Notes: generated by a model not told the origin, from the sequence alone. 64,000 bases of DNA from Gemmatales bacterium (GCA_041640595.1 JBEPZY010000001.1:1184001-1248000), one strand, 5' to 3'; numbered from the stretch's first letter, positions 4,417 to 51,676 are shown. A program made the numbers and translations.

Positions 4417-4517
4417 GGTCTGCCTCCGAGCAGGGTCCGCGTGGGAGTCGGCAGTTGTAAGTGGTCGGACAAGCGAAGTTCCGGTCTGCCTCCGAACAGG
4501 GTCTTGGTCGGAGTCGG
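4417..4517 (+). repeat. 35-bp imperfect direct repeat x2 with a 31-bp unique insert (period 66)
   Basis: GGTCTGCCTCCGAGCAGGGTCCGCGTGGGAGTCGG (4417-4451) and GGTCTGCCTCCGAACAGGGTCTTGGTCGGAGTCGG (4483-4517). Confidence 0.9.
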
Positions 4518-4681
4518 GGTGGATTCTCGACGAAGATGGTGCTCACTGCCCTAGATGAGAACACACCGGTGGCCGTAGAGCTGTTACCTGGTCAGGTGCA
4601 TGAAGCAACGCAGGTCGAGAAGATGCTTGATGCGAGCCAAGCACGTCTTCCTCAGATTGAGGAAGCGGTGGTGGATAAGGG

Positions 4682-4848
4682 GTTTGACGGTGAGCCACAG
4701 CGGGCAGCTATGGTCGCTCTTGCATGCATTGTTGGCCCCCCTGTGCGGAGTTTGACGGTGAGCCTCAGCGGCAAGCGATGTTGTGAGTTCGCCTGCGCCT
4801 CCGGGTCGTTGTCCGCGTTTGACGGTGAGCCACAGCGGCAAACCATGG
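4682..4848 (+). repeat. ~32-bp imperfect direct repeat x3 with two 36-bp inserts (periods 68, 67)
   Basis: GTTTGACGGTGAGCC(A/T)CAGCGG... starting at 4682, 4750 and 4817. Confidence 0.92.
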
Positions 4849-5087
4849 CAAGTCGGAACATCCGGCCGGTGATTCCCTATCGAGCCAATCGGCAAAAAGG
4901 GGGGGCGACTAAACCGGAAGGCGTATGCGGAGCGTAACAAGATAGAACGGCTGATTGGCAAGTTGAAAGAGTTTCGTCGCATCGCCACACGATATGACAA
5001 GTTGAAAGAGACATTTCTTGGCATCATTCAACTGGCTCTCGCATACATTTGCCTAAAAGCTAAGTTAATCGTCAACAGAGCCTAATT

Positions 5088-5594
5088 ATGACAGCATTAG
5101 CGACTGGATTTTCTCTAAGCACGGCAACAAGCCTGACGCTGGTTACGGGATACTGGCCAGGTTCCGGTCTGGGAGGCGTGCTGGTGTTTGCAGTGAGCTT
5201 TGCTGCATTCTGGGGATTCAGTATGTTAGTTGGGGCGCTGAGCCGGAGCAGTGCTGCCGTGCTGGTTGCGAATGTCCTATTGTGGTTGGTAAGCTACGCG
5301 GTGAACGTTTCGCACTTATGCCAGACCTCGTATCCGAGCGAGCACATCACTGCTTCAGTTTTGGCCCGGCTACCTTACTGGTGCTTGCCGAAACCGGCCG
5401 ACTTGTTGATACTGTTGAGCGACCTCATCGGTGCAGGCCAACATTTCGCCAGCTTCCCGGAACTACTGGATTCCCGAAACGTGGCTGAGTTTAACCCATG
5501 GTGGAGCGTTGGAAGCAGTTTAGGCTTCGGTCTGACCATGGCTGTCCTGGCCGGCTGGGAGTTACGCCGGGCGGAAACAGAAGTCTTTTCATAA
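5088..5594 (+). pseudogene. C-terminal part of an ABC-2-type permease, probably 5'-truncated at the IS
   Basis: Multi-TM ORF with 'YWCLPKPADL'; starts a few bp after the right IS end with no RBS. Confidence 0.55.
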
Positions 5595-5652
5595 GTTGCC
5601 ACTTCAGCAAGCCTTATGAAAACAGGAAAAAAGGAAACATTTTTACGCGGCT

Positions 5653-5684
5653 ATACTTGACGAAAAAGTAAACGTTCCTAGAAT
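5653..5684 (+). promoter_or_regulatory. sigma70-like promoter of the suf operon overlapped by an IscR/Rrf2-like operator
   Basis: TTGACG (5657-5662), 16 bp, TAGAAT (5679-5684); ATACTTGACGAAAAAGTAAACGT resembles IscR type-1 sites. Confidence 0.55.
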
Positions 5685-5711
5685 ACTGGCAGCCACGAAC
5701 GGTAGCTGACC

Positions 5712-6287
5712 ATGAAAATTTCCGCCCAGGAAGAGTATGGCTTGCGGTGTCTTTTGCAGCTAGCGGTCGCTCCGGATCACACCCGGACGATCGCCGAAAT
5801 AGCTGCCGCGGAGGGTCTGTCGCAACCGTACGTCGCGAAACTGCTGGCGGTGTTGCGTCAGGAAGGGCTGGTGGAAAGCGTGCGTGGTCGGACTGGCGGC
5901 TACCGGCTCACGGAGCGACCCGAAAAAATTCAGCTTGGTCGGGTGCTGCGGGCTCTAGGCCAGCCACTATACGATGAGCCGGACTACTGCCGCCGGCACG
6001 CCGGCACAGAAACCGAGGGCAGCTGTGTTCACAGCCTGCAGGCCTGCAGTCTGCGAGCCTTGTGGCAGACTTTGGAGACCTGGCTCCGCCACGCCCTGGA
6101 TCAGCTGCACTTGAGCGATCTGTTGCAGTCACCCTGTGATTTAGCTCAGCGACTCAGGCAACGCCTGGAACAAGCGATCCAGGAACTACCCGCGGCTACG
6201 GAATCGTCCCTGATTTCCGGCATTGACACCACTAAATTGCAAAGACGCCCTGCGGAACTTAGTCATGCCTGGCCTGCGGACTCCTAA
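5712..6287 (+). CDS. Rrf2-family transcriptional regulator (IscR-like) heading the suf operon
   Basis: '[11 protein letters not shown]', '[15 protein letters not shown]', three Cys in the C-terminal half. Confidence 0.92.
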
Positions 6288-11253: not shown

Positions 11254-11272
11254 AATCAGGATAGCCACTAAC

Positions 11273-29480: not shown

Positions 29481-29626
29481 GGCCGAACGAAACCTGCGGC
29501 TGCGCTGCAAATGGGACAGCCAGCACAGTTCTCGTGACTGAGCTGAACAAACTTATCTCCAGCAAGTGCCGTCTTTCGAGGAAGCAAGCTCCACACTGGT
29601 TCTGTCCTCCCTGGAAAGCGGACGAC

Positions 29627-31177: not shown

Positions 31178-31237
31178 GCACTCACACCTCGGTTTTGTGG
31201 GAAAGGCACAATCGGCTTGGCTGTTCTCTGCCCGAGC

Positions 31238-33569: not shown

Positions 33570-33648
33570 ACACGGTTGAACCCAATTGGTTCCTACAAGC
33601 CCATACCACAAAAACAGGCTTCGTGCAATGCCAACCCGACCGGTGTGG

Positions 33649-33750
33649 TTAGGTTAGCCTAATTATTCTGATTAGCCAAGCCGAATGATAATTAGTGGTA
33701 CCTAATGCTCATAGTTAGTGCCACCTAGCTAAGAAATTAGGAAAACCTAA
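33649..33750. promoter_or_regulatory. Five phased TTAG-N6-CTAA palindromes (DtxR/MntR-type operator array)
   Basis: TTAGGTTAGCCTAA 33649, TTAGCCAAGCCGAA 33672, TTAGTGGTACCTAA 33692, TTAGTGCCACCTAG 33715, TTAGGAAAACCTAA 33737. Confidence 0.75.
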
Positions 33751-33770
33751 CAATATTGCGGAAGGTCTCT

Positions 33771-34631
33771 ATGAACGCATACAGTCTAAACTTAGGCACG
33801 ATGGCGCTATGGCTGGCATTTTCGGAAACAGTGTTAGCCCAGCTCCCGCCCAATACCGCGTCAGGCAACGGAATTGATAAACCTGCCTTCCGCCCTACCA
33901 GCGAAGCCACAGCCAACAGCCGATCAACTTCGATACGCCGACCAGGGCCTGACACTGCCGATCTACCTGACAGCCCTTACGCTGTACCGCCAGGTGTCGT
34001 TTACGTTGAAACCGCACTAACCTATCAGCGGAGTAAGTCTCCCGCTGATCATGAGTATTTCACGGCCACACTGGTTCGCGTCGGTCTTCTACAGAATTGG
34101 GAGCTACGGGTGGGCGGTCCGGGTTTGATCGTTCGGGATGGTTTGCCAGACTCCACTACCGGATTTGGCCCGATTACCATCGGTGCGAAGTGGCACTGGT
34201 GGGAGGAAATCGAGGACAGGGGAACTCCTGCGGCCGGACTGATTTTCCAGGTAACCACCCCAACCGGTTCCGATGCTTTTCGGCCTGAAATTGCCGAACC
34301 GGCTGGCTTCCTCTCTTTTTGCCATCCACTGCCCTGGGAAATGGAATTTGAATGGAACGTTGGTCTTGCTCTGACCAGGGGCCAATGCGAGCGGACTCAG
34401 CTTGAGGGTTGGCTATTGTGGGCTTTGAGCAGGCAAGTTACTCCGAATTTGAACGTATTTATGCACGGCTACATAGTTACGCCGGGCCTCGTCAGCGAGA
34501 CCGAAATCGTTTTGGGGCCTGGTCTGATCTGGTTTATCAGCGAACGAATGGCATTGGATACCAGCTCGGTTTTCGGCGTTACCGACGATGCTCCTACCAT
34601 CGCACGCGTGGGATTGAATCTGGCCTTTTAG
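33771..34631 (+). CDS. Putative outer-membrane beta-barrel transporter (MetA-pathway/phenol-degradation-like family)
   Basis: Signal peptide, 'RPGPD.A..P.SP..VP.G..Y.E', 'RVGL...WELR', amphipathic strands, terminal Phe. Confidence 0.72.
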   Translation: MNAYSLNLGTMALWLAFSETVLAQLPPNTASGNGIDKPAFRPTSEATANSRSTSIRRPGPDTADLPDSPYAVPPGVVYVETALTYQRSKSPADHEYFTATLVRVGLLQNWELRVGGPGLIVRDGLPDSTTGFGPITIGAKWHWWEEIEDRGTPAAGLIFQVTTPTGSDAFRPEIAEPAGFLSFCHPLPWEMEFEWNVGLALTRGQCERTQLEGWLLWALSRQVTPNLNVFMHGYIVTPGLVSETEIVLGPGLIWFISERMALDTSSVFGVTDDAPTIARVGLNLAF

Positions 34632-34658
34632 CATCGGACGTCGAATTTCCCCCTGTCA

Positions 34659-34770
34659 GGTGTGCCAGTGGTGATTCGTTTCGGAGGCCAGCCACATTCT
34701 CGTCGGCTTCCTCGAGGTTTAACCTACGCGAGGATGTGCCAGGGGGCTTCGTTTCACAAGCCAGCCAAAT
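34659..34770 (+). repeat. ~38-bp imperfect direct repeat x2 with a ~35-bp insert (period 73-74)
   Basis: TGTGCCAGTGGTGATTCGTTTCGGAGGCCAGCCACAT (from 34661) vs TGTGCCAGGGGGCTTCGTTTCACAAGCCAGCCAAAT (from 34735). Confidence 0.75.
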
Positions 34771-34849
34771 GACCGACGTGTGATATTTCGCTACCTTATA
34801 CCGTAACTTCCTGCCCACCAAAAGTCCCTGCCCAACGGAGTCAGCAACC

Positions 34850-37264: not shown

Positions 37265-37458
37265 ACCTCTAACCGTAACCCTGCCGGGCGAAATTGCGTT
37301 CGGTACTTGATCCGCGATCAAGCAACGGCAAGAGGAATAATCGCTAGGATGATTGCAAACCGGAATGGTTCGACTGAATGAACCGCACATCGCTATCCAA
37401 GCCGGCTCTACCGAAGAATATCCAGTGCGGATAAGCCAAGTTTGGGAAGGAAGTGGGC

Positions 37459-37911
37459 ATGCTTACGCGGCAGGAATTCGATGTCATTCTCGCGGACACC
37501 ACCAAGCGCATCCTGGGAGATATTGATTGGCGAGAAGATGCAGACCATTCTCCGGCCCGCGAATTTCGCATCGAGGTTAGCTCGGATAACGGATGGCCCA
37601 TTTTCATCGTCGGCCGTTGGAATCCCTATGCCGGGACGTTGAGCTACGTTCTCATCCATCGCGGTGCCGGACGCATCTACGGACTGGACCTGGGCGCTGA
37701 TCATCACAATCCTACTTGCGAGCGGGTCGGCGAGAAACATAAGCACGCATGGACTGAAGAATTTCGCGATAAGCAGGCTTACGTGCCCAGCGACATCACA
37801 GCGTCTTGGGACCAGCCCGTGGAGGTGTGGCGTCAGTTTTGCCGTCAGGCCAACATCACGCACCAGGGTCAAATGCATCCTCCCTCGGTGCAAGGGGAAC
37901 TAATCCCATGA
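37459..37911 (+). CDS. DUF6978-like protein
   Basis: 'RIYGLDLG..HHNP..E.V...HKH.WTE' and C-terminal 'FC..ANI'; family name from memory of the motif. Confidence 0.7.
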   Translation: MLTRQEFDVILADTTKRILGDIDWREDADHSPAREFRIEVSSDNGWPIFIVGRWNPYAGTLSYVLIHRGAGRIYGLDLGADHHNPTCERVGEKHKHAWTEEFRDKQAYVPSDITASWDQPVEVWRQFCRQANITHQGQMHPPSVQGELIP

Positions 37912-38684
37912 CTTGCGAAGAACTGCGTGCGCAATTGCACGCATCCGGACATCTGCTATTTGAATGCAGTCCGGCCCCACGGGAAGGGATCAGAGTCCGG
38001 ACATTTTTGCTTTATCCGGACGGAGGCATCATTGATGTTTTCGTCGTGGAGCGGGATGGACAGTTAGAGGTGACCGATTTCGGCGAAGCTTTGGGCTGGC
38101 TTCGCCTGCAATCTCCGAGAGGACATCTTTCCCCCAAGCAAAAGCGTCTGATTGCTGACGTATGTCTTACCCTGGGCGTGGAATGTTTTCGTGGCCAGCT
38201 GGTGTGCCGAGTCAAAAATAATGACGTCTCCGCGGCAGTTCTGAAGGTGGCTCAAGCAGTGCTGCGCGTGACCGATTTGTGGTTCACCATGCGCACGCGA
38301 GTAATTGAAAATGTCGCAGACGAAGTGGCGGACTGGCTCAGCGAGAAAGGCATTGCCTTTGAACGTGGTGCCACACACGTCGGTCGTTCGGGACGTGTCT
38401 GGACCGTGGACTACCAGACGCACTTGCCTCAACGTACCTCGCTTGTTTTCCTGCTCGCTACAGGTTCGCGTGCGGCAGCCCGTCGAGTCACCGAACATGT
38501 GCTGGCCGGGTTATACGACCTCAGCCACCTCAAGGTAGTGCAGCCCCAGCTTGCGTTCGTCTCACTTTTCGACGACACCGAGGACGTCTGGCAGGAAGAG
38601 GATTTTCGACTCGTCCAGGATTTGTCCGTGGTGGCACGATGGTCGCGGCCGGACGAGTTCGAAAAGATACTGCGGGCCGCATGA
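37908..38684 (+). CDS. DUF1828/DUF1829-like protein (chaperone-like N-domain plus putative PD-(D/E)xK-like C-domain)
   Basis: ATGA overlap with the upstream gene; 'T.F.YPDG..IDVFV', 'VTDFGEAL', 'GRSGR.WTVD', 'SLFDD'. Confidence 0.75.
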   Translation: MTCEELRAQLHASGHLLFECSPAPREGIRVRTFLLYPDGGIIDVFVVERDGQLEVTDFGEALGWLRLQSPRGHLSPKQKRLIADVCLTLGVECFRGQLVCRVKNNDVSAAVLKVAQAVLRVTDLWFTMRTRVIENVADEVADWLSEKGIAFERGATHVGRSGRVWTVDYQTHLPQRTSLVFLLATGSRAAARRVTEHVLAGLYDLSHLKVVQPQLAFVSLFDDTEDVWQEEDFRLVQDLSVVARWSRPDEFEKILRAA

Positions 38685-39090
38685 ATTGCAAACACCGCCG
38701 GCTCATTGCCAGGCAACCACCGCTCCGACCCCACAAGCAGCTCTCGGCGACACGCGAACATGAGGCTGATTTCTGGCACAGCCGTTCAGGGGCCATATAC
38801 CCCTACTTACACCACCAGCGTCAGAAAAACAGAACCAGGGTGGAATCCCGCTGGCAGCACGCCACACGTTATCGGTGACACGCAGCTATTGTCCCTGTTC
38901 ACGCTTAGTTACGGGCTTTGTTCACGATAATTTCTTTGGCAAGCCAACGAATAAACACGAGGAGCAAAGTCAAGGGCAAAACCAGCAGTGCGTTCCGAAT
39001 ATATTTCCTAGCTAGCCCACGGCCAGGCTTCTTTTTTCGGTGCTCAGGCGAACATCCGGAACCGAGTCGGCAAGGTGGACACCAGGCGAC

Positions 39091-39978
39091 ATGGACACCA
39101 CGCTGTTAGCCGACAACACCGTCGGCAAAATCTATTTCGCGGATAACCTGGAGGTGCTCAGGACGTTTCCGGACGAATCGGTGGATTTGATCTACATCGA
39201 TCCGCCGTTCAACACCGGGAAGGTACAGGAACGCATCTCCATCAAAGCGGTGAGGTCGGAAGAAGGTGACCGGGTCGGCTTTCAGGGACGTCGCTACCAA
39301 AGCGTCGTCATCGGGAGAAAGCGTTTCGCGGATATGTTCGACGACTACCTGGGCTTCCTGGAACCGCGTCTGGTCGAAGCCTACCGCATTCTCGCGCCCC
39401 ACGGATCGCTGTATTTCCATGTGGATTACCGTGAGGTGCACTATTGCAAGGTGCTGCTCGACTGCATATTTGGCCGACAGTGTTTCCTGAACGAAATCAT
39501 CTGGGCCTATGACTACGGTGGGCGTCCTAAAGACAGATGGCCGGCTAAACACGACAACATTCTGCTTTACGTGAAAAGTCCTGGTCAGCACGTGTTCAAT
39601 GCAGATGCGATCGAACGCATACCGTATATGGCCCCAGGATTGGTAGGTGCGGAGAAAGCAGCCCGCGGAAAACTACCGACCGATGTCTGGTGGCACACCA
39701 TCGTTCCGACCAATAGCGCTGAAAAAACGGGATACCCGACCCAGAAGCCCCTGGGCATCCTTCGCCGCATCATTCAGGCCTCTTCTCGACCGGGTGCCGT
39801 TGTGCTCGACTTTTTTGCCGGCAGCGGAACGACCGGGATGGCTGCCCTCGAACTGGGCCGCCGCTTTATTCTCGTGGACAACAACCCCGAAGCCCTGGCA
39901 GTGATGGCTCGCCGCTTCGACGGCATCAAAGGAATCACATGGTCCGGCTTCGACCCTGCTGCATCGCGGAGAATTTGA
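39091..39978 (+). CDS. Site-specific DNA methyltransferase (N6-A/N4-C, beta motif order)
   Basis: 'DLIYIDPPFNTG' precedes 'YPTQKP' and 'VLDFFAGSGTTG'. Confidence 0.95.
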   Translation: MDTTLLADNTVGKIYFADNLEVLRTFPDESVDLIYIDPPFNTGKVQERISIKAVRSEEGDRVGFQGRRYQSVVIGRKRFADMFDDYLGFLEPRLVEAYRILAPHGSLYFHVDYREVHYCKVLLDCIFGRQCFLNEIIWAYDYGGRPKDRWPAKHDNILLYVKSPGQHVFNADAIERIPYMAPGLVGAEKAARGKLPTDVWWHTIVPTNSAEKTGYPTQKPLGILRRIIQASSRPGAVVLDFFAGSGTTGMAALELGRRFILVDNNPEALAVMARRFDGIKGITWSGFDPAASRRI

Positions 39979-40151
39979 ATCCGCAATTTCGATCAAAGGA
40001 ATCGACTGGTTCGGTTTCGACCCGCTAGCGATTGCGACAGCGTTTCAATCCCACCGATCGAAGGAACCGCATGGTCCGGCTTCACCCGCAATGGTCGTTT
40101 TGAACGAATCCGTTACCGCGGCACCTAAGGAATATGCTTCGGCTTCGACCG
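39925..40151 (+). repeat. ~32-bp degenerate repeat x4 with 33-35 bp inserts, derived from the methyltransferase 3' end (periods 67, 65, 66)
   Basis: ATC(A/G)AAGGAA....TGGT(C/T)CGG(C/T)TTCGACCC-like copies at 39925, 39992, 40057 and 40123 (last one most degenerate). Confidence 0.85.
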
Positions 40152-40160
40152 AACCTTTAC

Positions 40161-40415
40161 CGGAAACACGTCTGGCAGCGGCAAGCGGCGGTGCAGTTCT
40201 ACGGCGACGAGGCGATGAAGCTGCTCCGCGACGCGGTGGCTAAGGGATTCAAGGATGCCGCTCGCATGAAGAAGGACAGCGCCTTCGACGTGATCTGATT
40301 GGAAACAGTCACGGCAACGTCCAGCGCCCGCATGCAAAAGGACAGCGACCTCGACCCGCTGCGGCAACGTTCCGACTTCCAGCAATTGCTGCAGGAGTTG
40401 CTCGGCCCCCGGTGA
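40161..40415 (+). pseudogene. C-terminal fragment of a planctomycete TPR-tailed Ser/Thr kinase-type protein
   Basis: Manual translation 'FYGDEAMKLLRDAVAKGFKDAARMKKDS...RMQKDSDLDPLRQRSDFQQLLQELL*', interrupted by a 66-bp insert containing TGA (40296-40298). Confidence 0.75.
40260..40355 (+). repeat. 30-bp imperfect direct repeat x2 with a 36-bp insert (period 66)
   Basis: GCTCGCATGAAGAAGGACAGCGCCTTCGAC (40260-40289) and GCCCGCATGCAAAAGGACAGCGACCTCGAC (40326-40355). Confidence 0.88.
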
Positions 40416-40802
40416 ATCGGTCAATAACCAGTTTCCCCTGGAAAAGTGCGATGACCGCCCAATGGTGGACCACGACGGCCCGAGTCCGCAAGCAGCGGAC
40501 TGGTGGCCACGTGTCACATGGATTTTTGGCAGGTCGGTTGGCAAATTGGGACACGCCACAACGCCTTCTGCAACACACGTGAAGGGGAGCGTTATTGTGG
40601 CCAGAAGAAAGTCGGTGCCGGAGAGGTTTTCGACAAGAATGGCGGCATCGCCCCTCGCAGTCGGGAACAATAGCGGCATGGCCTGCCACAATGGGGGCCG
40701 ATATTGGTCCCGCAATCAGGATCGCTGCCGAAGCCCCATCGGAGCCTGGTGCTGGCTTGCTAATTCAATCCAGCCGTCGCTCGATTAGCACCGTCGAGGA
40801 AT

Positions 40803-41165
40803 TATTGGACCTTGGTGCGGGCAGCCGGTCGCGGCTCGTCCTCGCAAGCGCAGCAAGCCCCAAAACGCCTCGTGCACGGTTTACTGGCGAGCAGTTTGTA
40901 CCTACCCCTACATCGGTTTCAAACTCTGGTTCTGATCCCGCTCGGTTTACTGGCGAGCAGTTTATGCCTACCCGCACCGCCGTCTGATGGATCCCCAGAA
41001 AGCTGAAGAGGTGACGCAGGCCTTCTTTGCGAAGCTGCTGGCCAGGAAATACCTCCACGCACTCACGCCAACACGGGGACAATTCCGAGCATTTCTGCTG
41101 ACCGCTTGCCGGCGTTTCCTGCAATAAGCGCTGGAGCCGGGCCGCCCTACAGAAGCGCGACGACG
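40803..41165 (+). pseudogene. ECF sigma-70 factor remnant (planctomycete type)
   Basis: 'YWTLVRAAG..SSSQAQQA', frameshift, 'VYWRAVYAY.HRR..D.QKAEEVTQAFFAKLL', 'RGQFRAFLLTACRRFL', stop at 41125-41127. Confidence 0.8.
40874..40973 (+). repeat. 34-bp imperfect direct repeat x2 with a 32-bp insert (period 66)
   Basis: GCACGGTTTACTGGCGAGCAGTTTGTACCTACCC (40874-40907) and GCTCGGTTTACTGGCGAGCAGTTTATGCCTACCC (40940-40973). Confidence 0.92.
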
Positions 41166-41178
41166 TGCGGGGCGGCGG

Positions 41179-43128
41179 TTATTTTTTCACTTCGAAGTCG
41201 GCGTCAATGACGCCTTCGGATGGACCGCCAGTCTGACGGCTGCCATCGCCACTGGTGGTGGTTCCCGCACCGGCCGCCTGGCGATACAGGTGCTGCGACA
41301 TGGCGTGGGAAGCCTGTTCGAGTTCGGCAATGGCTTGACGAATGGCGGTAATGTCGTCGCCCTTCATCTTTTCCTTGAGCCGGGCTATGGCCGACTCCAC
41401 CGCGGCCTTGTCGGCGCTGGAGAGTTTGCTGCCGTGCTCGCGCAACACTTTTTCGATGTGGTAGATGAGGTTGTCAGCCTGGTTGCGAGTTTCGGCCAAT
41501 TCGCGGCGACGACGATCCTCGGCCGCGTGGGCTTCGGCTTCTTTGCGCATGCGTTCGATTTCGGCCTGGGTCAGGCCGCTGGACGCTTCGATACGAATCT
41601 TTTGCTCCTTACCCGTGGCCAGATCACGGGCCGAGACATGCAGGATGCCGTTGTGGTCCACCTCGAAGGTAACTTCGATTTGCGGCACGCCCCGCGGGGC
41701 TGGCGGAATGCCTTCGAGGTTGAATTGGGCCAGCAAACGGTTATCAGCGGCCATTTCGCGCTCGCCCTGGAACACGCGGATGGTAACTGCTGTCTGGTTA
41801 TCTTCGGCAGTGGTGAAAATCTGCTTGCGGGACGTCGGGATGGTGGTGTTGCGCTCGATGATTTTGGTGAACACGCCACCCAGCGTTTCGAGACCGAGCG
41901 AGAGCGGCACAACGTCCAGCAGGAGCACTTCCGATTTGCTCCCCAGCAAGAGCTGGTGGCCCTGGATGGCGGCACCTACCGCAACGACTTCGTCGGGATT
42001 GACGCCCTTGTGCCCTTCTTTGCCGAAAATCTCCCGCACCAGTTGCTGGACGCGCGGCACGCGGGTCATACCGCCGACGAGCACCACTTCGTCAATGTCG
42101 CTGGGTTTCAAACCAGCATCGCGTAGGGCCTGCATGACCGGTCCGCGGCAACGTTCCACCAGATGCTCTGTCAACTGCTCGAATTTCGACCGGGTAATGG
42201 TCATTTGCAGGTGCTTCGGGCCGCTCGCATCAGCGGTGATGAACGGCAGGTTGATGTCGGTCTGGGTCTGGCCGGACAATTCCTTCTTGGCTCGCTCGGC
42301 TGCCTCTTTCAGCCGCTGCATGGCCATGTTATCCTTGCGCAGGTCAATGCCGGTTTCCTTCTTGAACTCATCGGCGATGTAGTTGATCAGCACCTCGTCC
42401 CAGTTATCGCCACCCAGGTGGGTATCGCCGTTGACCGCCTTCACTTCAAACACGCCATCGCCCACCTCCAGGATGGATATGTCGAAAGTACCGCCGCCCA
42501 GATCGAAGACTGCGATCTTCTCGTTTTTCTTCTTTTCCAAGCCGTAAGCCAGGGCAGCCGCGGTCGGCTCGTTGATGATACGCATACGCTGACGAACGAT
42601 TTTGCCGGTCTTCGGATCTTCCAGTTCCCATTCGGGGTCAAACCCGGCAATGGCAGCGGCATCAATGGTGGCTTGGCGTTGGGCATCGTTGAAGTACGCG
42701 GGCACGGTAATCACAGCCCGGCGAACCTTATGGCCCAGATAGTTCTCGGCCGCCTCCTTCAACTTGCGCAGCACCATGGCCGAGATTTCGGGCGGCGTGT
42801 AAATCTTGTCGCCGATTTTAACGGCGGCCATTCCTTTGGAGTCGGGCACCACTTCATACGGAACCATCTTGCGTTCCTGCTCGACTTCCTCGAAACGCCG
42901 ACCCATGAAACGCTTGATGGAGTAAATCGTGCGTTTCGGGTTGGTGATGGCCTGGCGTTTGGCCGGATCGCCCACCAGAATTTCGCCCTTGTCGGTAAAC
43001 GCAACCACGCTCGGCGTCAACCGGTTGCCCTCCTGGTTGGGGATCACTTTCACCTCGTTTCCTTCCATGACTGCCACAACGGAGTTTGTGGTGCCCAGGT
43101 CAATTCCGATAATCACGTCGCTAGCCAT
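41179..43128 (-). CDS. dnaK: Molecular chaperone DnaK
   Basis: '[10 protein letters not shown]', '[14 protein letters not shown]', 'DLGGGTFD', 'VNPDEVVA', C-terminal 'DADFE'. Confidence 0.99.
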
Positions 43129-43306
43129 GGCTCACTCCTGTCATTAGAGGTTGGTCGTTTTCCAGTCCGTTCGCTCCCTGCGGCCGGGGCGGGAAAATTG
43201 CCCACCCCTACGGTAGGCAAGCGCGGCAGCACCAGCCGAGTTAGGGTAGGTTCTCTGCAGCTCGCCGCACCGGTAAATCGTTCTCTCTTCAATTGTACAG
43301 CATAGG

Positions 43307-43322
43307 AGCAACCGACGTGCCA
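43307..43322 (-). promoter_or_regulatory. sigma-54 (-24/-12) promoter of dnaK
   Basis: Minus strand reads TGGCACG-TCGG-TTGCT, matching the TGGCACG-N4-TTGCW consensus, ~180 bp upstream of the dnaK ATG. Confidence 0.75.
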
Positions 43323-43628
43323 GGAATTCTGGTCAGCGAGCAAATCATCAAGTGTTTGTATCACAGCGACTTGCGTCATAAGCCGTTATCGGGGCTAGTC
43401 CAGGTTCGCGGAAAAATGCCGATTCGGCAGTATTATGGTGGCCAAAACGACGCCATCGGCTGATATATGCCATTTCGGCAGCATGGAATATTGGCGGGCA
43501 GGAACAGCCAGGCTGGCAGTTTTGCAATTCCCATGATTTTTGCCGGAAAATCTTTGTGTAGATTATTGACAGTGGACAGTCGCGGTCATAAATTACAATG
43601 GCATCAGGGAATTCAGTCGAGGCCAGCC

Positions 43629-44762
43629 ATGAGTCGCAAGTCGAGCGAAGATGGCAGCGTCACTGTAACTCGATCCCAGGCCCAGTTGCGGTCGTTGCGG
43701 GGCCAAATTGACAAACTCGATTTGCAAATCCTCAAGCTGATCAACGAGCGGGCAGCCATTGCCTTGAAAATTGGCCAGTTGAAAAACGATCACGGTCAGG
43801 AAGTTTTTTCGCCAGCACGAGAAGAGGAAGTGTTGCGGCACGTGTTGCAAGCCAATAAAGGGCCGCTCTCGGAGCAAGCAGTTCGGGCCATTTTCCGGGA
43901 ACTCATGAGTGGTTCGCGGGCCTTGCAAAAGGTGCTGCGTGTGGCTTATTTGGGCCCGGAATACAGTTTCAGCCATCTGGCCGCACTGGAACGGTTCGGG
44001 CAAAGCGTGGAATTCATCCGCGTTGGTACGATTGCCGCCGTTTTTGAGGATGTGGATCGTGGCCAGGCCGATTACGGCGTCGTGCCGCTGGAGAATTCCA
44101 CCGATGGCCGCATTGTGGACACCCTTGAAATGTTTGTCCGCATGCCGCAAATCAAGATTTGTGCCGAAGTGCGACTGCGGATCCACTATCACCTGATGGC
44201 GAACTGTGCCCCCAGCGAAATCCGCCGCGTTTACAGCAAGACGCAGGCCTTATCGCAGTGCCGCAACTGGCTGGCCAAGAATGTTCCGCAAGCCCAGCTC
44301 ATCGAGGTCGCGAGCACGGCGACGGCGGCGGAACTGGCCCAGCGGGAGCCGGGAGCGGCTGCAGTAGCGAGTAGGCAGGCGGCTACGCGGTACGGCTTGC
44401 GTATCCTCTTTTCCAACATCGAGGACTATCCCTACAACGAAACGCGTTTTGCCGTCATCGCCACACAGTCCCCGCCGCATTCCTCAGAGGTGCCGGAAAA
44501 GACGGCCGTCATGTTTCAGGTGCCGCATCGCCCCGGTGCTCTGGTGGATGCGCTCAACGTCTTCAAGCAGAACAAGGTCAATCTGACCTGGATTGAATCG
44601 TTCCCGGCTCGTTCGGGTCGGCCGGAGTACGTGTTTTTCGTGGATTTCGAGGGGCATCAGGACGAACCCAAGATTCGCCGCACCCTCGAAGCGCTCCAGG
44701 AGCACTGCGAACGTGTGGTCATCCTCGGCTCCTTCCCCACCAGCGAACCCGCGGAAACGTAA
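43629..44762 (+). CDS. pheA: Chorismate mutase / prephenate dehydratase (P-protein)
   Basis: 'LR.QID.LD..IL.LINERA', 'AYLGP', 'VPLENSTDG', 'QCRNWL', 'N.TRF', ACT domain 'NLTWIESFP'. Confidence 0.97.
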   Translation: MSRKSSEDGSVTVTRSQAQLRSLRGQIDKLDLQILKLINERAAIALKIGQLKNDHGQEVFSPAREEEVLRHVLQANKGPLSEQAVRAIFRELMSGSRALQKVLRVAYLGPEYSFSHLAALERFGQSVEFIRVGTIAAVFEDVDRGQADYGVVPLENSTDGRIVDTLEMFVRMPQIKICAEVRLRIHYHLMANCAPSEIRRVYSKTQALSQCRNWLAKNVPQAQLIEVASTATAAELAQREPGAAAVASRQAATRYGLRILFSNIEDYPYNETRFAVIATQSPPHSSEVPEKTAVMFQVPHRPGALVDALNVFKQNKVNLTWIESFPARSGRPEYVFFVDFEGHQDEPKIRRTLEALQEHCERVVILGSFPTSEPAET

Positions 44763-45004
44763 GCACACTTGCCCGCCCCCGCCTGCGTATCATCCTCGTC
44801 CTCGCCACACTTAAAGCTGTTCGCACCACATCCGGCCTGCCTGGTGTGCTGTGCGTCACCGCGACGCGAATTAACTTTGGCCGCTACTGCACGGTAAACA
44901 GTTCCAGCTCGGCTTCGGTCGGCCAAGGCAAAAAAGCGAACCAGTCTGGGTTGTTCGAGAAATCCAAGTTGCGGAAGGCTCTGGCAATATGGTCCCGTAG
45001 GCTT

Positions 45005-47614
45005 TCAGTTGGCGAAGGGGACGAGGCGATAAGAAAACTGCACGTCATCGGCCGGGGTCAGGCTGTCGGCCAGCTGAATGAAGAGCGTTCCCTGGGCGGC
45101 GCGGTGCACCGGTCGCGGTTTGTCGAACTCAATCCGCACGCCGAAACCGCCACGATCGATCAGCACCCCTCGCGCCATCACCGGCTTGTCGGCAAGTGGC
45201 TCGCCCGCCTGACCGTCGTCGCCCAGTACCGTAACGGTGGTCGGCAGCGGTTTCTGTCCTGGCCGGGCTTTACCCTGCGGCAAAAACGGAATGAGTTCGT
45301 ACACCTCGCGGACCTTGCCACGGAACGGATTTTTCAGCCACAGCGCCAGTAGCTCTTTATCCTGCGTCTGCTGCAATTGTACCTGGCAGCGGATGCCGTC
45401 CGGTTCGAAGATGTACACCCGCCGGCAGCGTAACGGTGTTCCGCGGATGTCACCGGAGCTTTCCACCCGTTGTCCGACAAGGCGGGCATCGAAGTGTTCG
45501 CTATCCCCGGCGACAAACGGCGAACCGTCGGCCTGAATCCCGGCCAGGGTGTGCAGGCGGAAACCGCGCCATTGGGAAACGTCCATATTCTCGCCATAAG
45601 CCCCATTGAGCACCGAAGCCAGGACCAGTCCCCTACCCGGCACATGCAACTGGCAGATCATGCCGCCACCGTAACCGGATTGCCCCAGGTGGCTGTGCGT
45701 TTCCCATTTCGGCGACAACCGACCGTGATAGGTCAGGACGTAATAGTTTTTCCGGCGAGCGGCGAACCACTCGTTGGCCCCGTTGACCGACTCGGTGAAA
45801 TCCGGCCCCGGCAAACCTTTCCAGGCGAAAGGCCCTTCGGTCTCGATTTTCCAGTGGGGATAGTAGTGGGTACGGGAACTCCACGGCCCAGCAGGAACGT
45901 TTTCGTCGGCCAACGTGTAGCTGAACCATCGCCGCACGCCATCGTACACCTTTTGCAACCGCGGATCGGGCAGGTCAGCCAGGATTGCTTGCCACGTTGT
46001 CAGGATGTAAGAGCCGTAGTGATACGCATAGGCGAACCCTTCCTGCACCGGTCCGGAAGGCCCGACGCCGACTCGTTCGCCCCAGCCACCACGGGTAAAA
46101 CGCTCCCAGTAGGTGTCGAACAATTCCTTCTGCAGCGGATCGCCGGTCGCTTCGTAACAATAACGCAGCGCCGCCAGCACCTGGGCGTATGAGTTGCCGT
46201 TGACCCGTTCCCAACTGCGGCAAAACGCCAGCCGATCACCAGCCACCAGAAACGCCTCGCGGACGATCGCTTTCACCTCGTCCGGTGCATCGCTGTGTTG
46301 CAGGATGTGCCACGCCGGCCGCCAGTATTGCCACGCATAGTTGCTGAACTCGTAAGCGAGATTGGCAAACGGCCCACCCATCGCGACGGCGACGTGATCG
46401 TTCGGCCCGATGGCTCGCAGCCCGGCGAACAGTTCCCGCAACGCCACATTCAACGCCGCACGGTTTTTGTGTGCGGGATAATGATGCATAATCCGATCGC
46501 ACAGGGGCGGCTGGCCGTACGGACCGTTCACCGGCAAAAAGTTTGGTCGCTGCGGAAGCACAGGCAACTTCTGTCCCGGCGGATAGCCCGCCACCGGTGT
46601 CGCCAGTTCCCCTTTTTCGTTCCGCACCTCGAAATCTTCCGGCCGCAGCTTCTTCAGCCAGTCGTGGAAGCGAACCTGGAAGCCGTGCCAGAATACCTCG
46701 CCGTCGTGATAAATGGCACCGTTGCGGATCGCCCGAGCCGTCGCTTCATCAGCTGCCAGCACCGCCGGCACTGCCGGTTCGCCCCGATGGTGTACGTTGG
46801 CATTTCGCTGCAACCGCAACTTCACCAGGAGCAGGAAATCATTATCCCCCGGCGATACTTCCAGCCGCAGCACCTGATCCCACAGTTGTTCCGGCTGGGC
46901 AAAATCCACCGCCGTCTTCCAGAAAATCGGTCCCGGCTCGTTGGCCACCAGTTCCTTGCCGTCGGGAGTATAGATCGCCACACGCCGTTGTCGCGGCCGG
47001 TCGTATTCCGCGATCGCCACATACAGCCCGACGCTGCCCCGCGGCACATACAAATACGCTCGCCGCCATTGCTCGCCGTGCCCGTGCAGCCAATCCGGAT
47101 GGCCCGCCATTGCCGTCGGCAGCTCCGGTTCGATCTTGAACGACACTACATGATCCGTCGCCCCGACGATCACCACCCGATACACGCCCGCCTGTCCCCC
47201 ACGCACTGCAAAGCGAAAGTCGCGCTTCGGCACCGCCGCCAGCCGGGCCGGGTCCATGACCGCACTCCAGCGAAGCAATGCCGCTCCCTTTTCCTGAGCG
47301 TAAGCGTGATACCACGCTTCATGGTCCCAGCCGCCCATCGGCAACTGAAACAGCGGCTTGGTAATACCGTCATCGGGCAGCACTTGCCGCACCACGCACC
47401 GCCCCTGCGGATCATACACCTTCACCAGCACCTCACGCGGGCCGAACTCATACAGGTTCAGGTCGCGGACACCCAGATGCACCGTGAAATCCTTACCCGC
47501 CTCGTTGACCACGAAGACGGTAATCCCGTCATGCAACCTATGCGTGGATTGTGCCTGCAACAGCGGCGCGCACCCTATCAGCATCAGAGCCACCAGTACC
47601 GCGTTCCTTTTCAT
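45005..47614 (-). CDS. Large secreted hypothetical protein (869 aa)
   Basis: GGAG RBS, signal peptide, strong GC3 bias, W/Y/H-rich central region; no family recognised. Confidence 0.85.
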   Translation of the reverse strand: MKRNAVLVALMLIGCAPLLQAQSTHRLHDGITVFVVNEAGKDFTVHLGVRDLNLYEFGPREVLVKVYDPQGRCVVRQVLPDDGITKPLFQLPMGGWDHEAWYHAYAQEKGAALLRWSAVMDPARLAAVPKRDFRFAVRGGQAGVYRVVIVGATDHVVSFKIEPELPTAMAGHPDWLHGHGEQWRRAYLYVPRGSVGLYVAIAEYDRPRQRRVAIYTPDGKELVANEPGPIFWKTAVDFAQPEQLWDQVLRLEVSPGDNDFLLLVKLRLQRNANVHHRGEPAVPAVLAADEATARAIRNGAIYHDGEVFWHGFQVRFHDWLKKLRPEDFEVRNEKGELATPVAGYPPGQKLPVLPQRPNFLPVNGPYGQPPLCDRIMHHYPAHKNRAALNVALRELFAGLRAIGPNDHVAVAMGGPFANLAYEFSNYAWQYWRPAWHILQHSDAPDEVKAIVREAFLVAGDRLAFCRSWERVNGNSYAQVLAALRYCYEATGDPLQKELFDTYWERFTRGGWGERVGVGPSGPVQEGFAYAYHYGSYILTTWQAILADLPDPRLQKVYDGVRRWFSYTLADENVPAGPWSSRTHYYPHWKIETEGPFAWKGLPGPDFTESVNGANEWFAARRKNYYVLTYHGRLSPKWETHSHLGQSGYGGGMICQLHVPGRGLVLASVLNGAYGENMDVSQWRGFRLHTLAGIQADGSPFVAGDSEHFDARLVGQRVESSGDIRGTPLRCRRVYIFEPDGIRCQVQLQQTQDKELLALWLKNPFRGKVREVYELIPFLPQGKARPGQKPLPTTVTVLGDDGQAGEPLADKPVMARGVLIDRGGFGVRIEFDKPRPVHRAAQGTLFIQLADSLTPADDVQFSYRLVPFAN

Positions 47615-47642: not shown

Positions 47643-47975
47643 CCGCAGTCTTAGCCGCGAGTGCTCCAACTATTCCACCTGAGATGGTGATCGAAATGCT
47701 AAAGGGGTAATGTGCTTGTAGCGTTAGCCGTAAGCGACCCAAGTATCCCACTCAGGTGGCGAAAGTGCGGCTATGTATTCTGCTGGAGTTTGTAGCGTTA
47801 GCCGCCAGTGCCCCTAGCATCCCAGTCGGATTGCAGCAGTGCGGCAATGTGCCCTGTTTGGGTTTGTAGCGTTAGCCGTAAGCGACCCAAGTATCCCACT
47901 CAGGTGGCGAAAGTGCGGCTATGTATTCTGCTGGAGTTTGTAGCATGAGCCGCCAGCGATCTAAGTATCTCAGAC
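47643..47975. repeat. 74-bp tandem repeat, about 4.5 units
   Basis: TTGTAGC(G/A)T(T/G)AGCCG at 47716, 47790, 47864 and 47938, degenerate copy near 47643; units from 47716 and 47864 are essentially identical. Confidence 0.95.
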
Positions 47976-48005
47976 CTGGGCCGGATTGTCTGGTGCTCGC
48001 TGACA

Positions 48006-48103
48006 CTTTCGCCGTCAGCGTGTATCGCAACGGTGCCGCTACCCCGTCATTATGCGAACCCCAGCCCACGATGTACACACACCTCTGTTCGTTGACCGCT
48101 GAT
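48006..48103. repeat. ~98-bp dispersed direct repeat, copy 1
   Basis: CGCCGTCAGCG...CCGCTACCCCGTCATTATGCGA...CAGCCCA.GATGTACACACACCTC...TTGACCGCTGAT, also at 48734-48895. Confidence 0.9.
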
Positions 48104-48343
48104 TTGACAGCGAGCTTGTTGCCCTGCTAGCCCTAGAGGGGCACATCCGCCTCTCGTTAACATTGACTCATTCCAAGGCATGCCTTCTAGAAACGAGAGC
48201 AACTACGCCCTGGCAGACGCAGCCTTAGCGTGGCATGAGTGCTGGATTCTAGCCGGTGGCACAGCTCGCCTATAAAAATTCTTGATAAACACTCGCACAA
48301 AAGCTCGGCGAACGAAGCTGATACGGCGCAATGGGAGTCAGCC

Positions 48344-48733: not shown

Positions 48734-48895
48734 CTTTCCGCCGTCAGCGTATGTCGCAGCGTTCCGCTACCCCGTCATTATGCGAACTCGTCAAGGTTAG
48801 CTATAGACCATCCAGAGACGCACCCAATTACCCTGCTGCGTCATTATGCGAGCCCAGCCCAGGATGTACACACACCTCCGTCCTTGACCGCTGAT
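48734..48895. repeat. Dispersed direct repeat, copy 2, carrying a ~66-bp insertion
   Basis: Matches 48006-48103, but CGTCATTATGCGA occurs twice (48773 and 48839). Confidence 0.88.
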
Positions 48896-49180
48896 CGACT
48901 TCAATGACCGCTCCTTATAGACAGAAGGAATTACACTGTGCTATCTTTCATTAAGTAGCAACTGCTACCCTAAGCGCGAACAGTACTGTCAAGCTACCAA
49001 CAAACCAAATCACAATCCCCTTCTTAGCAACACCGGCCTAACATTACTGATATGCCTAATAAGACGGGGCCTGAGCATCTGGAATCCATCGGCGCGAAGA
49101 TGTTCCCCCTTGGTCAGGTGAACCACGCCTGGATATGATCTCGTCTACTTCCTACCCACACGGGAGAGGACATAAGTCCT

Positions 49181-49408
49181 ATGAAGAGGTCCATCCGCAA
49201 TTTCACTACGTACGATCGCGGTAATGCCGATGAGCTATTTGTAAGCGTCAGCACCGAAAATGGCCTCATAGCGCTTGTGCTGTCGCTGAAAGCTGACGGT
49301 GATATTACCGTGTTCCTGGACACCCCTGCTGCTAGAGAGCTAGCAAACGCACTCATTGAGGCAGCTAACCAGTCCGAATTAGAATACCCGCCCCACGAAA
49401 CTACGTAG
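49181..49408 (+). CDS. Small acidic hypothetical protein (75 aa)
   Basis: GAGGA RBS, globular beta-beta-beta-alpha-like pattern; no family recognised. Confidence 0.55.
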   Translation: MKRSIRNFTTYDRGNADELFVSVSTENGLIALVLSLKADGDITVFLDTPAARELANALIEAANQSELEYPPHETT

Positions 49409-49861
49409 TTGTTGTTGCTGATGGGGGTCGGGGCGCGTTAGGACTGGGCTTTCGACCAGTACCTGCGGAAACCGATCGAGGAGTGGATCCGCATGTGCAA
49501 GTGGCGTTCGCAGCCTGTGTTCAAAACACAGAGTGCATTCAATTTTGGGATAGCTTTGCGGCTGGACGGGAATCGCAGTGGCGATCAGCGCCTTTCCAGC
49601 CAGTGCACCTCAACTTCAGATGAGTCGTAAAATATTAGTGGGGTCGCGCCTTTACACCGCTGCAACTACAAGAATCATTCACATTCGGCCTCAGCATGGG
49701 CGAGCCGGTTTGAATTGATTATCATACACTTCGAGGGCATAAGATACCCCGTACTGACTCGGATGTGTTGGAGAGTAAACTTCATTCTTCTGGAGACAAC
49801 CTAACAAACTAGTCACGGAAGCTTTTCGTTAGACAATTAACGAGTACCAGAGGAGGTTCAA

Positions 49862-50299
49862 ATGACACCAGAAGAGGTAATATCGAGGGCGGAAAATCAG
49901 CGAGAACTAGAAGATATACCCACTTATGATGCCTTCTTCCACCCGTCTCATATCGAATTTTTCGCAGAGCTTTTCCAGCTGAGGATTCCTATCTGGATTC
50001 CGGATTATGACCTCGCCAGGTTGAAGCGTAAGATATGGTTCATTAAGGTGATGGAGGTACCGACCAGGCGTCATGATCTACTTGTTTACCACGTCCAGAG
50101 GTATTTCGTCGAGCGGGAGGCTGAGCTAGACCGCCATGTGCTTGGAAGGTTAATCTACTCCCCTGAGAAGCGCTGCCTATCGCTATTTTCGAATGACGGT
50201 CTGAAGGTCGAAATGGAAGTGTCGGCATTATGCGTTGAGCTGATAAAAAGACAAGAAGTGCGGTGGGATTGGCGTTGGCTTGATATCATCTGTTGTTAA
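49862..50299 (+). CDS. Hypothetical protein (145 aa)
   Basis: AGGAGG RBS directly before ATG; atypical, lower-GC codon use. Confidence 0.65.
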   Translation: MTPEEVISRAENQRELEDIPTYDAFFHPSHIEFFAELFQLRIPIWIPDYDLARLKRKIWFIKVMEVPTRRHDLLVYHVQRYFVEREAELDRHVLGRLIYSPEKRCLSLFSNDGLKVEMEVSALCVELIKRQEVRWDWRWLDIICC

Positions 50300-50964
50300 G
50301 ATAATGGGACTTACGTGTGCTAGGCTTTTGGTACCCTTGGGCAACAGCGGGTATTCACTCTTGGGGGCGTAACTCTTCGCGTTTCGCCCTACGCGTTGCT
50401 GCGACCCACAACCTAGCCACCCCTCCGCGAAGACCCACTCTCGTTCATCACCGGCGGTGACCGCGATAGGGGATGTAAACTAGCCATGCCCCTTTCTCGG
50501 TATGAGAGAAACTAAGCAGACCGCCGGGCATGTAAGTTGCGAAAACGTGTTCGTGCCTCTACTTATACATGCACAGAAAATCAGCGCATCGCTGAACAGA
50601 GAAATTGTGGCACTATACTTGAGAATTCACTTCCCGGTACAATGCAAGTTGGCACACCGTTTGGCTTCCAATGTTAGCCGCGAAGGAGACTTGCCTTTGG
50701 CCTTGAGTTGCAATGCAAGTTGGCGCTCCGTAGGCCACCGAACGTGTGGCTCTTTGTCCGCGGCTCCAGTTATAGGCGCAAAGGAAACCAGAGCCTCGTC
50801 GGGCCGGAAAAGTTGCCAGAAACTATTGTCGGCTGTCATTCCTGGTTATTAATGGCTCCAATTGCTGGTTCGATGCGAAGCTAATAGATCGCCGGGCAGG
50901 TAGGCTGATGTGCGTTGTTCGCAAGCGTCTTGATGCGAATCGGACAGCTAAGCTTGCAGGCAGA

Positions 50965-51480
50965 CTGCTGTCCTCTGTCCGCAACATAACCGAACATGTG
51001 ACTAAGCTCTTAGGCGCAAGGACATTCTAGCCGGACTGCTGTCGTTTGTCGCAACGTGACTGAGGGTCTGGTTAGTGTTTAGGCCCAATCTACATTCCCG
51101 GCGGGCTGCGGTGTTTGTTCGCAATGTGACCGAGGGTCTGGATAGGCCTATAGGCCCAATCTGCATTCCGGGCGGGCTGCGGTGTTTGTTCGCAATGTGA
51201 CCGAGGGTCTGGATAGGCCTATAGACCCAATCTACATTCCCGGCGGGCTCTGGTGTTTGTTCGCAATGTGACCGAGGGTCTGGATAGGCCTATAGGCCCA
51301 ATCTGCATTCTGGGCGGGCTGCTGTCGTTTGTTTGCTACGTGACCGAGCGTCTGGATAGGCTTTTAGACCCAATCTACATTCCGGGCGGGCTGCTGTCGT
51401 TTGTTTGCTACGTGACCGAGCGTCTGGGTAGGCTTTTAGACCCAATCTACATTCCCGGCGGGTCCGGTGTTTGTTCGCAT
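50965..51480. repeat. 70-72 bp tandem repeat, about 7.5 units, non-coding
   Basis: Unit ~CTGCGGTGTTTGTTCGCAATGTGACCGAGGGTCTGGATAGGCCTATAGGCCCAATCTACATTCCGGGCGGG; anchor at 50981, 51051, 51121, 51192, 51263, 51335, 51407 and 51477. Confidence 0.97.
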
Positions 51481-51584
51481 CGCCACTTATAGGTGGGACA
51501 AAGCTTACAGTGCTGGACAGGTATAGCGGTGCGGGGAACGGTGAGCAAACTCCTCTAATTCGGCAGAGTCTTCTTTATAAGTGG

Positions 51585-51676
51585 AACCGGGAAGGTATAG
51601 CTGTGCGGAACCTTGATAGGACGCCGTATCGGTCTCGTGCTCGCGAAAGTAACCGGGAATGTAAAGCTGTGCGAAA
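51585..51676. repeat. 26-30 bp imperfect direct repeat x2 (period 66), with a weaker third copy 74 bp upstream
   Basis: AACCGGGAAGGTATAGCTGTGCGGAA (51585) vs AACCGGGAATGTAAAGCTGTGCGAAA (51651); GGTATAGCGGTGCGG at 51520. Confidence 0.78.

Follow-up and report, generated by a model that had tools for sequence, protein, structure and literature searches.

A window of 64,000 nucleotides (nt) from the genome of a Gemmatales bacterium (GCA_041640595.1, JBEPZY010000001.1:1184001-1248000; C1:1184001-1248000 in our numbering of this draft genome, G000, which has 4.45 Mb in 42 contigs) contains nine sites at which a piece of ordinary local sequence is present twice, on both sides of an unrelated insert, with the geometry of a repeat-spacer-repeat unit of a CRISPR array. 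We found that several hundred such units, which we call scars, occur throughout the genome. They fall into two size classes, and the lengths of their duplications and inserts equal the repeat and spacer lengths of the two CRISPR arrays resident in this genome (30/36 and 37/37 nt). On the strength of these sequence comparisons we propose, with a probability of about 0.9, that the scars are fossil off-target, leader-independent spacer integrations made by the genome's own two Cas1-Cas2 integrases. The original prediction, drawn from the sequence of the window, had suggested frequent natural off-target integration by one or two adaptation modules or, alternatively, an unknown insertion process with a fixed ruler.

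Repeat-insert-repeat units in two period classes

The whole genome was scanned with 12-mer seeds for direct repeats located 20-300 bp apart. The spectrum contained sharp peaks at 65-68, 72-76 and 88-93 bp, together with their multiples, and most of the signal of the first two peaks was supplied by the two giant CRISPR arrays. In a second scan, with the arrays masked and at least 22 of 26 matches required at offsets of 30-130, there remained 1,138 direct-repeat pairs, and the distribution of their periods was not flat: 33, 89, 60, 24 and 9 pairs had periods of 65, 66, 67, 68 and 69, respectively, and 53, 63, 75, 62 and 19 pairs had periods of 72, 73, 74, 75 and 76, over a background of about 2-5 pairs per period, with 0-10 pairs at most other periods. 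Since the same scan returned 311 pairs from contig C2 and only 2 after this contig had been shuffled in 25-bp blocks, the excess of repeat-insert-repeat units is not due to chance.

The two period classes comprise 510 pairs. A non-repeated insert, recognized by a repeat that falls short of the period by 15 nt or more, separates the copies in 423 of them: 201 with periods of 64-69 (mode 66) and 222 with periods of 71-77 (mode 74). Whole-unit tandem repeats make up the remaining 87. We then removed every pair whose repeat occurs at more than three genomic places, a filter that overlooks weak units, among them units two and three of the array at 39925. This left 344 pairs at 326 loci, of which 309 have one insert, 16 have two and 1 has three. 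Outside the CRISPR arrays the whole-unit tandem repeats also peak at 66-67 (16 pairs) and 72-75 (59 pairs), an indication that recombination between the two copies subsequently amplified some of the scars.

Two further families came out of these scans. The peak at 87-96 bp was considered as a third class of scars and rejected, being produced by one dispersed hairpin-bearing element with the same sequence everywhere. In this element (about 250-290 pairs; for example C1:764202-765077 and C2:38119-39928) two GC-rich hairpin copies of about 29 nt surround about 63 nt, and it looks like a repetitive extragenic palindrome or a miniature inverted-repeat transposable element (MITE). In addition, 54 pairs genome-wide, 22 of them whole-unit, share the exact period of 126 bp and probably represent a 42-residue coding repeat or another repeat family.

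Next to these stand the scars. By strict extension the duplicates peak at 29-31 nt in the 66 class and at 36-38 nt in the 74 class, and subtracting the repeat length (30 or 37) from the period gives insert modes of 36 and 37. When 109 and 108 isolated loci of the two classes were superimposed, identity at the period offset formed a box about 30 or about 37 positions wide, at about 0.87, and dropped to the 0.26 baseline in the inserts and in both flanks. The inserts are thus unrelated to the flanks, and diverged tandem duplication is therefore excluded for loci of this shape. The duplicated sequence is host-derived and differs between loci. Likewise, 322 of the 344 inserts have no other copy in the genome, and most of the remaining 22 belong to paralogous copies of whole scars, so that the many copies of one inserted element that characterize a MITE or an insertion sequence (IS) are not seen here. 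Nor is there one conserved repeat shared beside a leader, as in a canonical array: each locus has a repeat of its own, nearly always with a single insert, and no leader-like flank.

These results bear on the possibility that the units are ordinary tandem duplications of 66-75 bp, produced by slippage or unequal crossing-over, in which part of the unit has diverged beyond recognition. Similarity over the whole unit, the mark of a minisatellite, does exist: two arrays in the window (47711-47973 and 51022-51479) have it, the only ones there, and so do the 87 whole-unit pairs that the genome holds in both classes. Against this, the identity box of the 217 isolated loci has sharp edges, the inserts have no counterpart in undisturbed paralogs or homologs (see below), and slippage offers no grounds for two preferred periods that match the CRISPR units; most tandem periods in a relative that yielded no cas1 were multiples of three. 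We consider tandem duplication a very improbable source of the scars.

Resident arrays, adaptation modules and relatives

The first of the two resident arrays has a 30-nt repeat and extends over two contigs (C8:2-21973, continued at C10:65236-66999), with 317 + 27 copies and spacers of 35-40 nt (mode 36). The second has a 37-nt repeat (C1:359749-377935), 247 copies and spacers of 33-40 nt (mode 37). Profiles for Cas1 match twice in the genome, as do those for Cas2, and each cas1-cas2 pair adjoins one array. The module beside the 30-nt array is of type I-B and contains cas1 (C8:22581-23348; Cas1b by NCBIfam), cas2 (C8:22207-22422) and cas4, with Cas3, Cas5b, Cas7 and Cmr1-Cmr6 as its other NCBIfam neighbors. 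Beside the 37-nt array lies a module formed by cas2 (C1:356211-356405), a reverse transcriptase (RT) gene and cas1 (C1:358631-359470); the RT has 550 aa, is group-II-intron-like and is followed by Cas1. As a separate observation, the open frame of the I-B cas1 encodes 458 aa (C8:22440-23816, minus strand) and its Cas1 match starts at residue 156; the N-terminal 155 residues match no NCBIfam family, and this extra part could reflect a wrong start codon or an uncharacterised extension.

The unit lengths of these arrays fit both peaks of the period spectrum (30 + 35-38 and 37 + 35-39). One or two adaptation modules had been predicted, and two complete ones are present, with geometries that match both classes of scars. 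From this match, the 30-nt class would be the product of the I-B module and the 37-nt class that of the RT-linked module.

Relatives with other sets of modules served as natural controls. A genome of the same genus (G002, 93% complete) has one cas1, of the RT-linked kind, located by a 37-nt repeat that is closely related. Its larger contigs, of which 323 kb were scanned, gave 9 scar-like pairs at periods 71-79 and 0 at 64-69, after excluding by eye the 72-bp pairs of a leucine-rich-repeat-like coding stretch and the pairs of an acidic coding repeat. Under the 201:222 ratio of the host genome, nine events all of one class have a probability of about 0.003, a value to be read with the caveat that clustered events are not independent. 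In 396 kb of a genome of the same family (G004), whose array was not found, the 4 pairs are all at 71-75. Finally, 400 kb of a genome of the same order in which no cas1 was found (G027) contained 27 pairs, 0 of them at periods 64-77 and most at multiples of three.

Some inserts could be related to the spacer pool itself. The insert at C2:174416-174453, flanked by the two copies of a non-CRISPR 30-mer, agrees with spacer 184 of the array at 30 of 31 aligned bases (96.8%). The two are out of register by about 2 nt and have different ends, which is what two captures from related alleles of a single protospacer would be expected to give. In the window, the last part of insert 40024-40056 consists of the initial 15 nt of the canonical 30-nt repeat, and a run of at least 15 nt of this repeat occurs in about 1 in 20,000 random 36-mers; this insert looks like a spacer captured from the array itself. 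In the other catalogued inserts, fragments of the canonical repeat did not exceed the 9-10 nt expected by chance. The 23S ribosomal RNA (rRNA) gene is the source of two inserts. This gene is itself unusual, its match at C5:166219-170885 spanning 4,667 nt compared to the 2,925 positions of the model, and it probably holds an intervening sequence of about 1.7 kb.

The I-B array is active: at least 31 of its spacers match a 9.6-kb contig (C15), and nearly all of these are among the last 55 spacers, at the end beside the cas genes. The upstream motif of these protospacers is CCD; C occupies position -3 in 28 of 31 cases and position -2 in 29 of 31, and it never stands at -1. The contig (C15:1-9585) has 7 large open reading frames (ORFs), none of which matches a PHROGs family, and is probably an unknown virus or plasmid that was binned with the host.

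These results can be set against the alternative named in the original prediction, a fixed-ruler insertion process unrelated to Cas1-Cas2, such as another family of integrases or transposases, whose agreement with the arrays would be a coincidence. Such a process would account for targets that barely resemble the canonical repeats and lack a leader-like flank, and for events that are nearly all old, with no insert from the currently targeted contig (these observations are given below). It would, in turn, need both about 30 + 36 and about 37 + 37 nt to coincide with resident repeat and spacer lengths, and would leave aside the insert that equals an array spacer at 30 of 31 bases, the insert that carries half a canonical repeat, and the same-genus relative that has only the 37-nt module and shows only the 71-79 class. 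The inserts, moreover, are all different, hence no mobile element family. There is no need for an unknown process, and we regard it as improbable, if less so than the other alternatives weighed here.

Empty sites and the units of the window

All nine predicted sites are present in the window with the predicted periods, eight of them recovered by the repeat search and the ninth (34659) by direct alignment. Their coordinates are given in Table 1.

Table 1. Positions and structure of the units in the window (coordinates counted from its first nucleotide).
Feature	Positions	Insert and copies	Period (bp)	Context
Scar	copies 4417-4451 and 4483-4517	insert 4452-4482	66	dead IS5-family transposase; flanking ORFs match Pfam DUF4096/DDE_Tnp_1
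Three-copy neo-array	4679-4712, 4747-4780, 4814-4847	two unrelated inserts	68, 67	same dead IS5-family transposase
Scar, 37-nt class	copies 28147-28183 and 28222-28258	38-nt insert; copies 95% alike	75	directly upstream of a Kdo/WaaP-family kinase ORF
Scar, 37-nt class	34660..34768 (site 34659)	insert ~38 nt; two ~35-37-nt copies with one indel, ~84% column identity by direct alignment	73-74	between two ORFs
Four-copy neo-array	39925-39956, 39992-40023, 40057-40088, degenerate ~40123-40152		67, 65, ~66	3' end of a DNA methylase (39040-39978)
Scar, 30-nt class	copies 40259-40289 and 40325-40355	35-nt insert	66	gene remnant (40150-40440)
Scar, 30-nt class	copies 40874-40907 and 40940-40973	insert ~32 nt; copies 91% alike	66	
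Scar, 30-nt class	48762..48851	insert ~36 nt and diverged second target copy	66	
Scar, 30-nt class	copies 51585-51610 and 51651-51676	copies 88% alike (30 nt, identity 0.83, in the genome-wide scan)	66	
Whole-unit tandem array	47711-47973	~3.4 copies	74	
Whole-unit tandem array	51022-51479	~6.3 copies	71-72	

At five of the nine sites (4417, 4679, 39925, 40259 and 48762) a paralog or homolog could be aligned that has one copy of the target and no insert, with reported gaps of 66, 135, 65 and 66 nt; for the remaining four, no paralog or homolog could be used. The dead IS5 element was compared in three paralogous copies (in the window, on contig C10 and at C1:~12.1-12.5 kb). The copy at about 12 kb of C1 has a single target and no insert at both the 4417 and the 4679 positions. 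That on C10 is empty at the 4679 position, where both paralogs lack the same 135 nt (68 + 67), and carries two copies of the 4417 target with a different insert between them; either the target was hit at least twice or a longer neo-array to which it belonged collapsed in two ways. For the scar at 48762, a paralog about 750 bp upstream (window 47985-48115) has a single target, with a gap of 65 columns. The homologous coding sequence in genomes G017 and G007 aligns across the site at 40259 with a gap of exactly 66 columns, and the G017 counterpart is a TPR-containing C-terminal protein region. Lastly, the methylase homolog of G017 has the target of the 39925 array once, in frame and with no insert, and then continues differently. 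Among same-genus relatives no empty sites could be read at the DNA level, the three of them being about 65-67% identical in coding DNA and unalignable in intergenic parts.

It had also been predicted that five of the duplications consist of ordinary coding sequence. The IS5 transposase was confirmed as the target at 4417 and 4679, both by Pfam transposase families and by the paralogous IS copies, and the methyltransferase end corresponds to the DNA methylase that bears the 39925 array. A Kdo/WaaP-family kinase ORF is present as well, and the scar at 28147 lies directly upstream of it. The label of an extracytoplasmic function (ECF) sigma factor could not be verified, the ORFs at 40125-41124 having no Pfam match. 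Around the scar at 40259 no plus-strand ORF of at least 80 aa covers the remnant, and translation of window 40151-40438 in one frame contains a stop.

The two whole-unit tandem arrays were absent from the original list. They may be scars amplified by unequal recombination, in the case of 47711-47973 from the 37-nt class. Weaker period-71 pairs lie near the second of them, at 50640/50711 and 50958/51029.

The identity of the duplicated pieces also bears on whether the units are decayed orphan mini-CRISPR arrays, acquired horizontally or moved by recombination, each with a foreign repeat. One locus resembles what this would predict: at C3:328836-328932 there is a degenerate near-canonical pair of 30-nt repeats with one spacer. 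It is part of a nested or compound locus (C3:328729-328932), in which the pair lies inside duplicated copies of a host 30-mer. Canonical repeats with up to five mismatches occur outside the arrays only twice, and the "repeats" of the window are local coding sequence of the transposase, the methylase and the TPR tail, which is single in paralogs and homologs. Orphan arrays are thus a highly improbable origin for the scars.

That the units were created during assembly is the least probable of all the explanations. The genome is a 42-contig draft assembled from a metagenome, which leaves room for artefacts; these would not be expected to produce diverged copies of fixed length. Furthermore, contigs assembled independently from another sample cover 27001-39517 and 39489-47000 gap-free, the first stretch with 116 and the second with 9 differences; the scar at 28147, for instance, is spanned by X2 record 7 and that at 40874 by X2 record 11. 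Since five scars of the window are spanned in this way without gaps, they are not assembly artefacts, and strains about 1% apart share them. The differences listed for these contigs include no 66- or 75-letter omission at the five scars; contigs drop rare variants, and 29 joints and 3 indels lie outside those listed. At least half of the sampled words of the window were contained in 17 sequencing runs from several studies, labelled as hot springs.

Two replacements distinguish the strains in these runs. In X5 and X11, the 117 letters at 34632-34748, with the scar at 34659, are replaced by 259 others, indicating that this locus varies between strains; the excess of 142 corresponds to about two units, and these strains may carry more or different spacers there. 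In X3 and X5, 915 bp at 33652-34568 are replaced by 39 letters. This affects most of a Phenol_MetA_deg-family ORF (33756-34631) and represents a strain-level difference in gene presence.

Age, target choice and proposed natural off-target integration

The scars are mostly old and accumulated. The two copies of a pair have diverged by about 13-15%, and the most common numbers of mismatches are 4 in 30 nt and 5-6 in 37 nt, in a distribution whose upper side is cut off by the detection limit of the scan. Scars are also depleted from long open frames: 37.5% and 38.6% of the insert midpoints in the two classes fall in stop-free frames of at least 200 codons, compared to 85.3% of the genome. Their density is very uneven (0-28 per 100 kb). 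There are 0 scars per 100 kb in C1:500-900 kb and 15-28 per 100 kb in C2:0-400 kb, and, because open-frame coverage differs only slightly between these regions, coding density alone fails to explain the unevenness.

Target choice was analyzed in pairs with sharp boundaries (41 of the 30-nt class and 49 of the 37-nt class, both strands pooled). In the 30-nt class, 49% of the duplications start with G at the 5' end; in the 37-nt class, about 35% start with C and about 35% with G, and there is an enrichment of T at the second position. These preferences mirror the termini of the two canonical repeats.

Several observations count against integration by the resident Cas1-Cas2 complexes, and we list them together. 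Beyond its terminal base, the target of the 30-nt class resembles the canonical repeat only marginally (11.4 vs 10.9 matches, p=2e-4), and that of the 37-nt class shows no resemblance to its own (13.5 vs 13.3 matches, p=0.27). A BLAST search with both leaders returned 10 short non-self matches, none of them within 300 bp of a scar. The scar at 4417 appears to be partitioned as 35 + 31 and not as 30 + 36. Among the self-derived protospacers of the 66 class, of which there are only three, the CCD protospacer adjacent motif of the I-B system is clear in one (CCG); a second fits with a 1-nt shift and the third does not fit. No insert matches contig C15, the source of at least 31 recent I-B spacers, and hence there has been no recent off-target event from the current invader. 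Only 9 of the 344 pairs are perfect, so a steady ongoing process is not seen, and either high activity in the past or a preferential loss of fresh repeats must be assumed. Finally, the differences between copies comprise 938 transitions and 790 transversions, and 332 of them (19%) are C-G changes, which is unexpectedly many.

Even so, the off-target reading withstood the outcomes that the original prediction had named as contrary to it: the periods are not evenly distributed, the genome has systems with matching unit lengths, homologous sequence lacks the inserts wherever it could be aligned in the window, and the junctions are spanned in independent assemblies. What changes is the meaning of "frequent", which holds for the several hundred scars found and not for the present, the scars being old and none of them coming from C15.

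We suggest the following sequence of events. Each integrase would bind a processed prespacer and attack both strands of ordinary chromosomal DNA, the two points lying a repeat length from each other, with a stagger of 30 bp for the type I-B Cas4-Cas1-Cas2 complex and of 37 bp for Cas2-RT-Cas1. Gap filling would then duplicate the stretch between the cuts, giving target copy, spacer and target copy. Scars would persist mainly where they do little harm, that is, in pseudogenes, gene ends and intergenic DNA, and their copies would diverge with time. Repeated hits at some sites would produce arrays of three or four copies, and some units would be amplified by recombination between copies. The dearth of perfect pairs could be due to a higher activity in the past or to repeat-mediated deletion, which would usually remove scars while their repeats are still fresh and perfect and return the site to precisely its original sequence; under deletion, only scars that had gained mismatches would persist.

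Taken further, this would mean that both integrases wrote spacers all over the chromosome without a leader, and that the roughly 330 scars are stabilized survivors, most fresh ones having reverted, with hot spots hit again and units amplified. This extension is tentative, and we think it rather doubtful as a whole. If such reversion does take place, it would account for the small number of perfect pairs (9 of 344), and the true rate of off-target integration would be far above the scar count.

Off-target spacer integration was reportedly described in 2018 by Nivala, Shipman and Church in Nat Microbiol, who are said to have obtained "neo-CRISPR" loci in Escherichia coli over-producing the type I-E Cas1-Cas2. 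The scars resemble those loci in the spacer-sized insert, in the flanking duplication of non-CRISPR host sequence, one repeat long, in the integration away from a leader and in that a new site can gain further spacers. They differ in scale and origin, those of E. coli being rare events under forced expression and the present ones natural, fixed and old, at several hundred loci. They also differ in the machinery, here a I-B module with Cas4 and an RT-linked module, with rulers of 30 and 37 bp, whereas the type I-E ruler is 28 bp. Adaptation modules associated with an RT (RT-Cas1) were reportedly presented by Silas et al. in 2016; the module beside the 37-nt array resembles these in that an RT gene adjoins cas1 and cas2, and differs in that the RT is a separate gene. 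As in transposition and casposon integration, staggered cuts followed by gap repair would duplicate the target. Unlike transposons and casposons, the inserts have 33-40 nt, are all different, lack terminal inverted repeats and form no family, and the duplications of 30 or 37 bp are longer than the approximately 14-15 bp of casposons.

According to papers that cite this work, off-target events in E. coli are rarer than array expansion (PMC7054753), and the evidence for two other species is "circumstantial", with an unclear natural frequency (bioRxiv 10.1101/148544). The Cas1-Cas2 of Pyrococcus furiosus, as far as the accessible text goes, performs off-target integration in vitro, and its Cas1 and Cas2 suffice for full-site integration (PMC6698737). 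It shares with the I-B system described here the 30-nt repeat and the use of non-CRISPR sites. In the same portion of that source its off-target sites have features in common with the repeat; here the likeness is marginal and confined to the terminal G/C preference. The mechanism is already known. In the full-text literature, which leaves subscription journals mostly outside its coverage, we found no survey of natural scars and none for RT-linked or I-B modules, so that the natural scale and the two non-I-E modules have not been found in print there.

Off-target integration is thus known from forced expression and in vitro work, and its frequency and cost in nature are open in what is accessible of the preprint (bioRxiv 10.1101/148544). 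The genome analyzed here offers several hundred natural events from what would be two adaptation modules in one cell, each with its own ruler, from which the target preferences of I-B and RT-linked integrases could be read in natural data. The insertional damage done by an immune system also becomes measurable, as in the dead transposase, the replaced C-terminus of the methylase and the split TPR tail. The age structure, with almost no perfect repeats, poses the question of scar loss versus stabilization. The scars provide material with which ideas on the birth of new CRISPR arrays could be tested, and their inserts would keep several hundred ancient spacers that have long gone from the arrays. 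Should the scars be the stabilized survivors of a much larger number of integrations, they would serve as a nursery in which new CRISPR arrays arise and, at the same time, as an archive of fossils from extinct mobile elements, and CRISPR adaptation would be a measurable insertional mutagen in nature.

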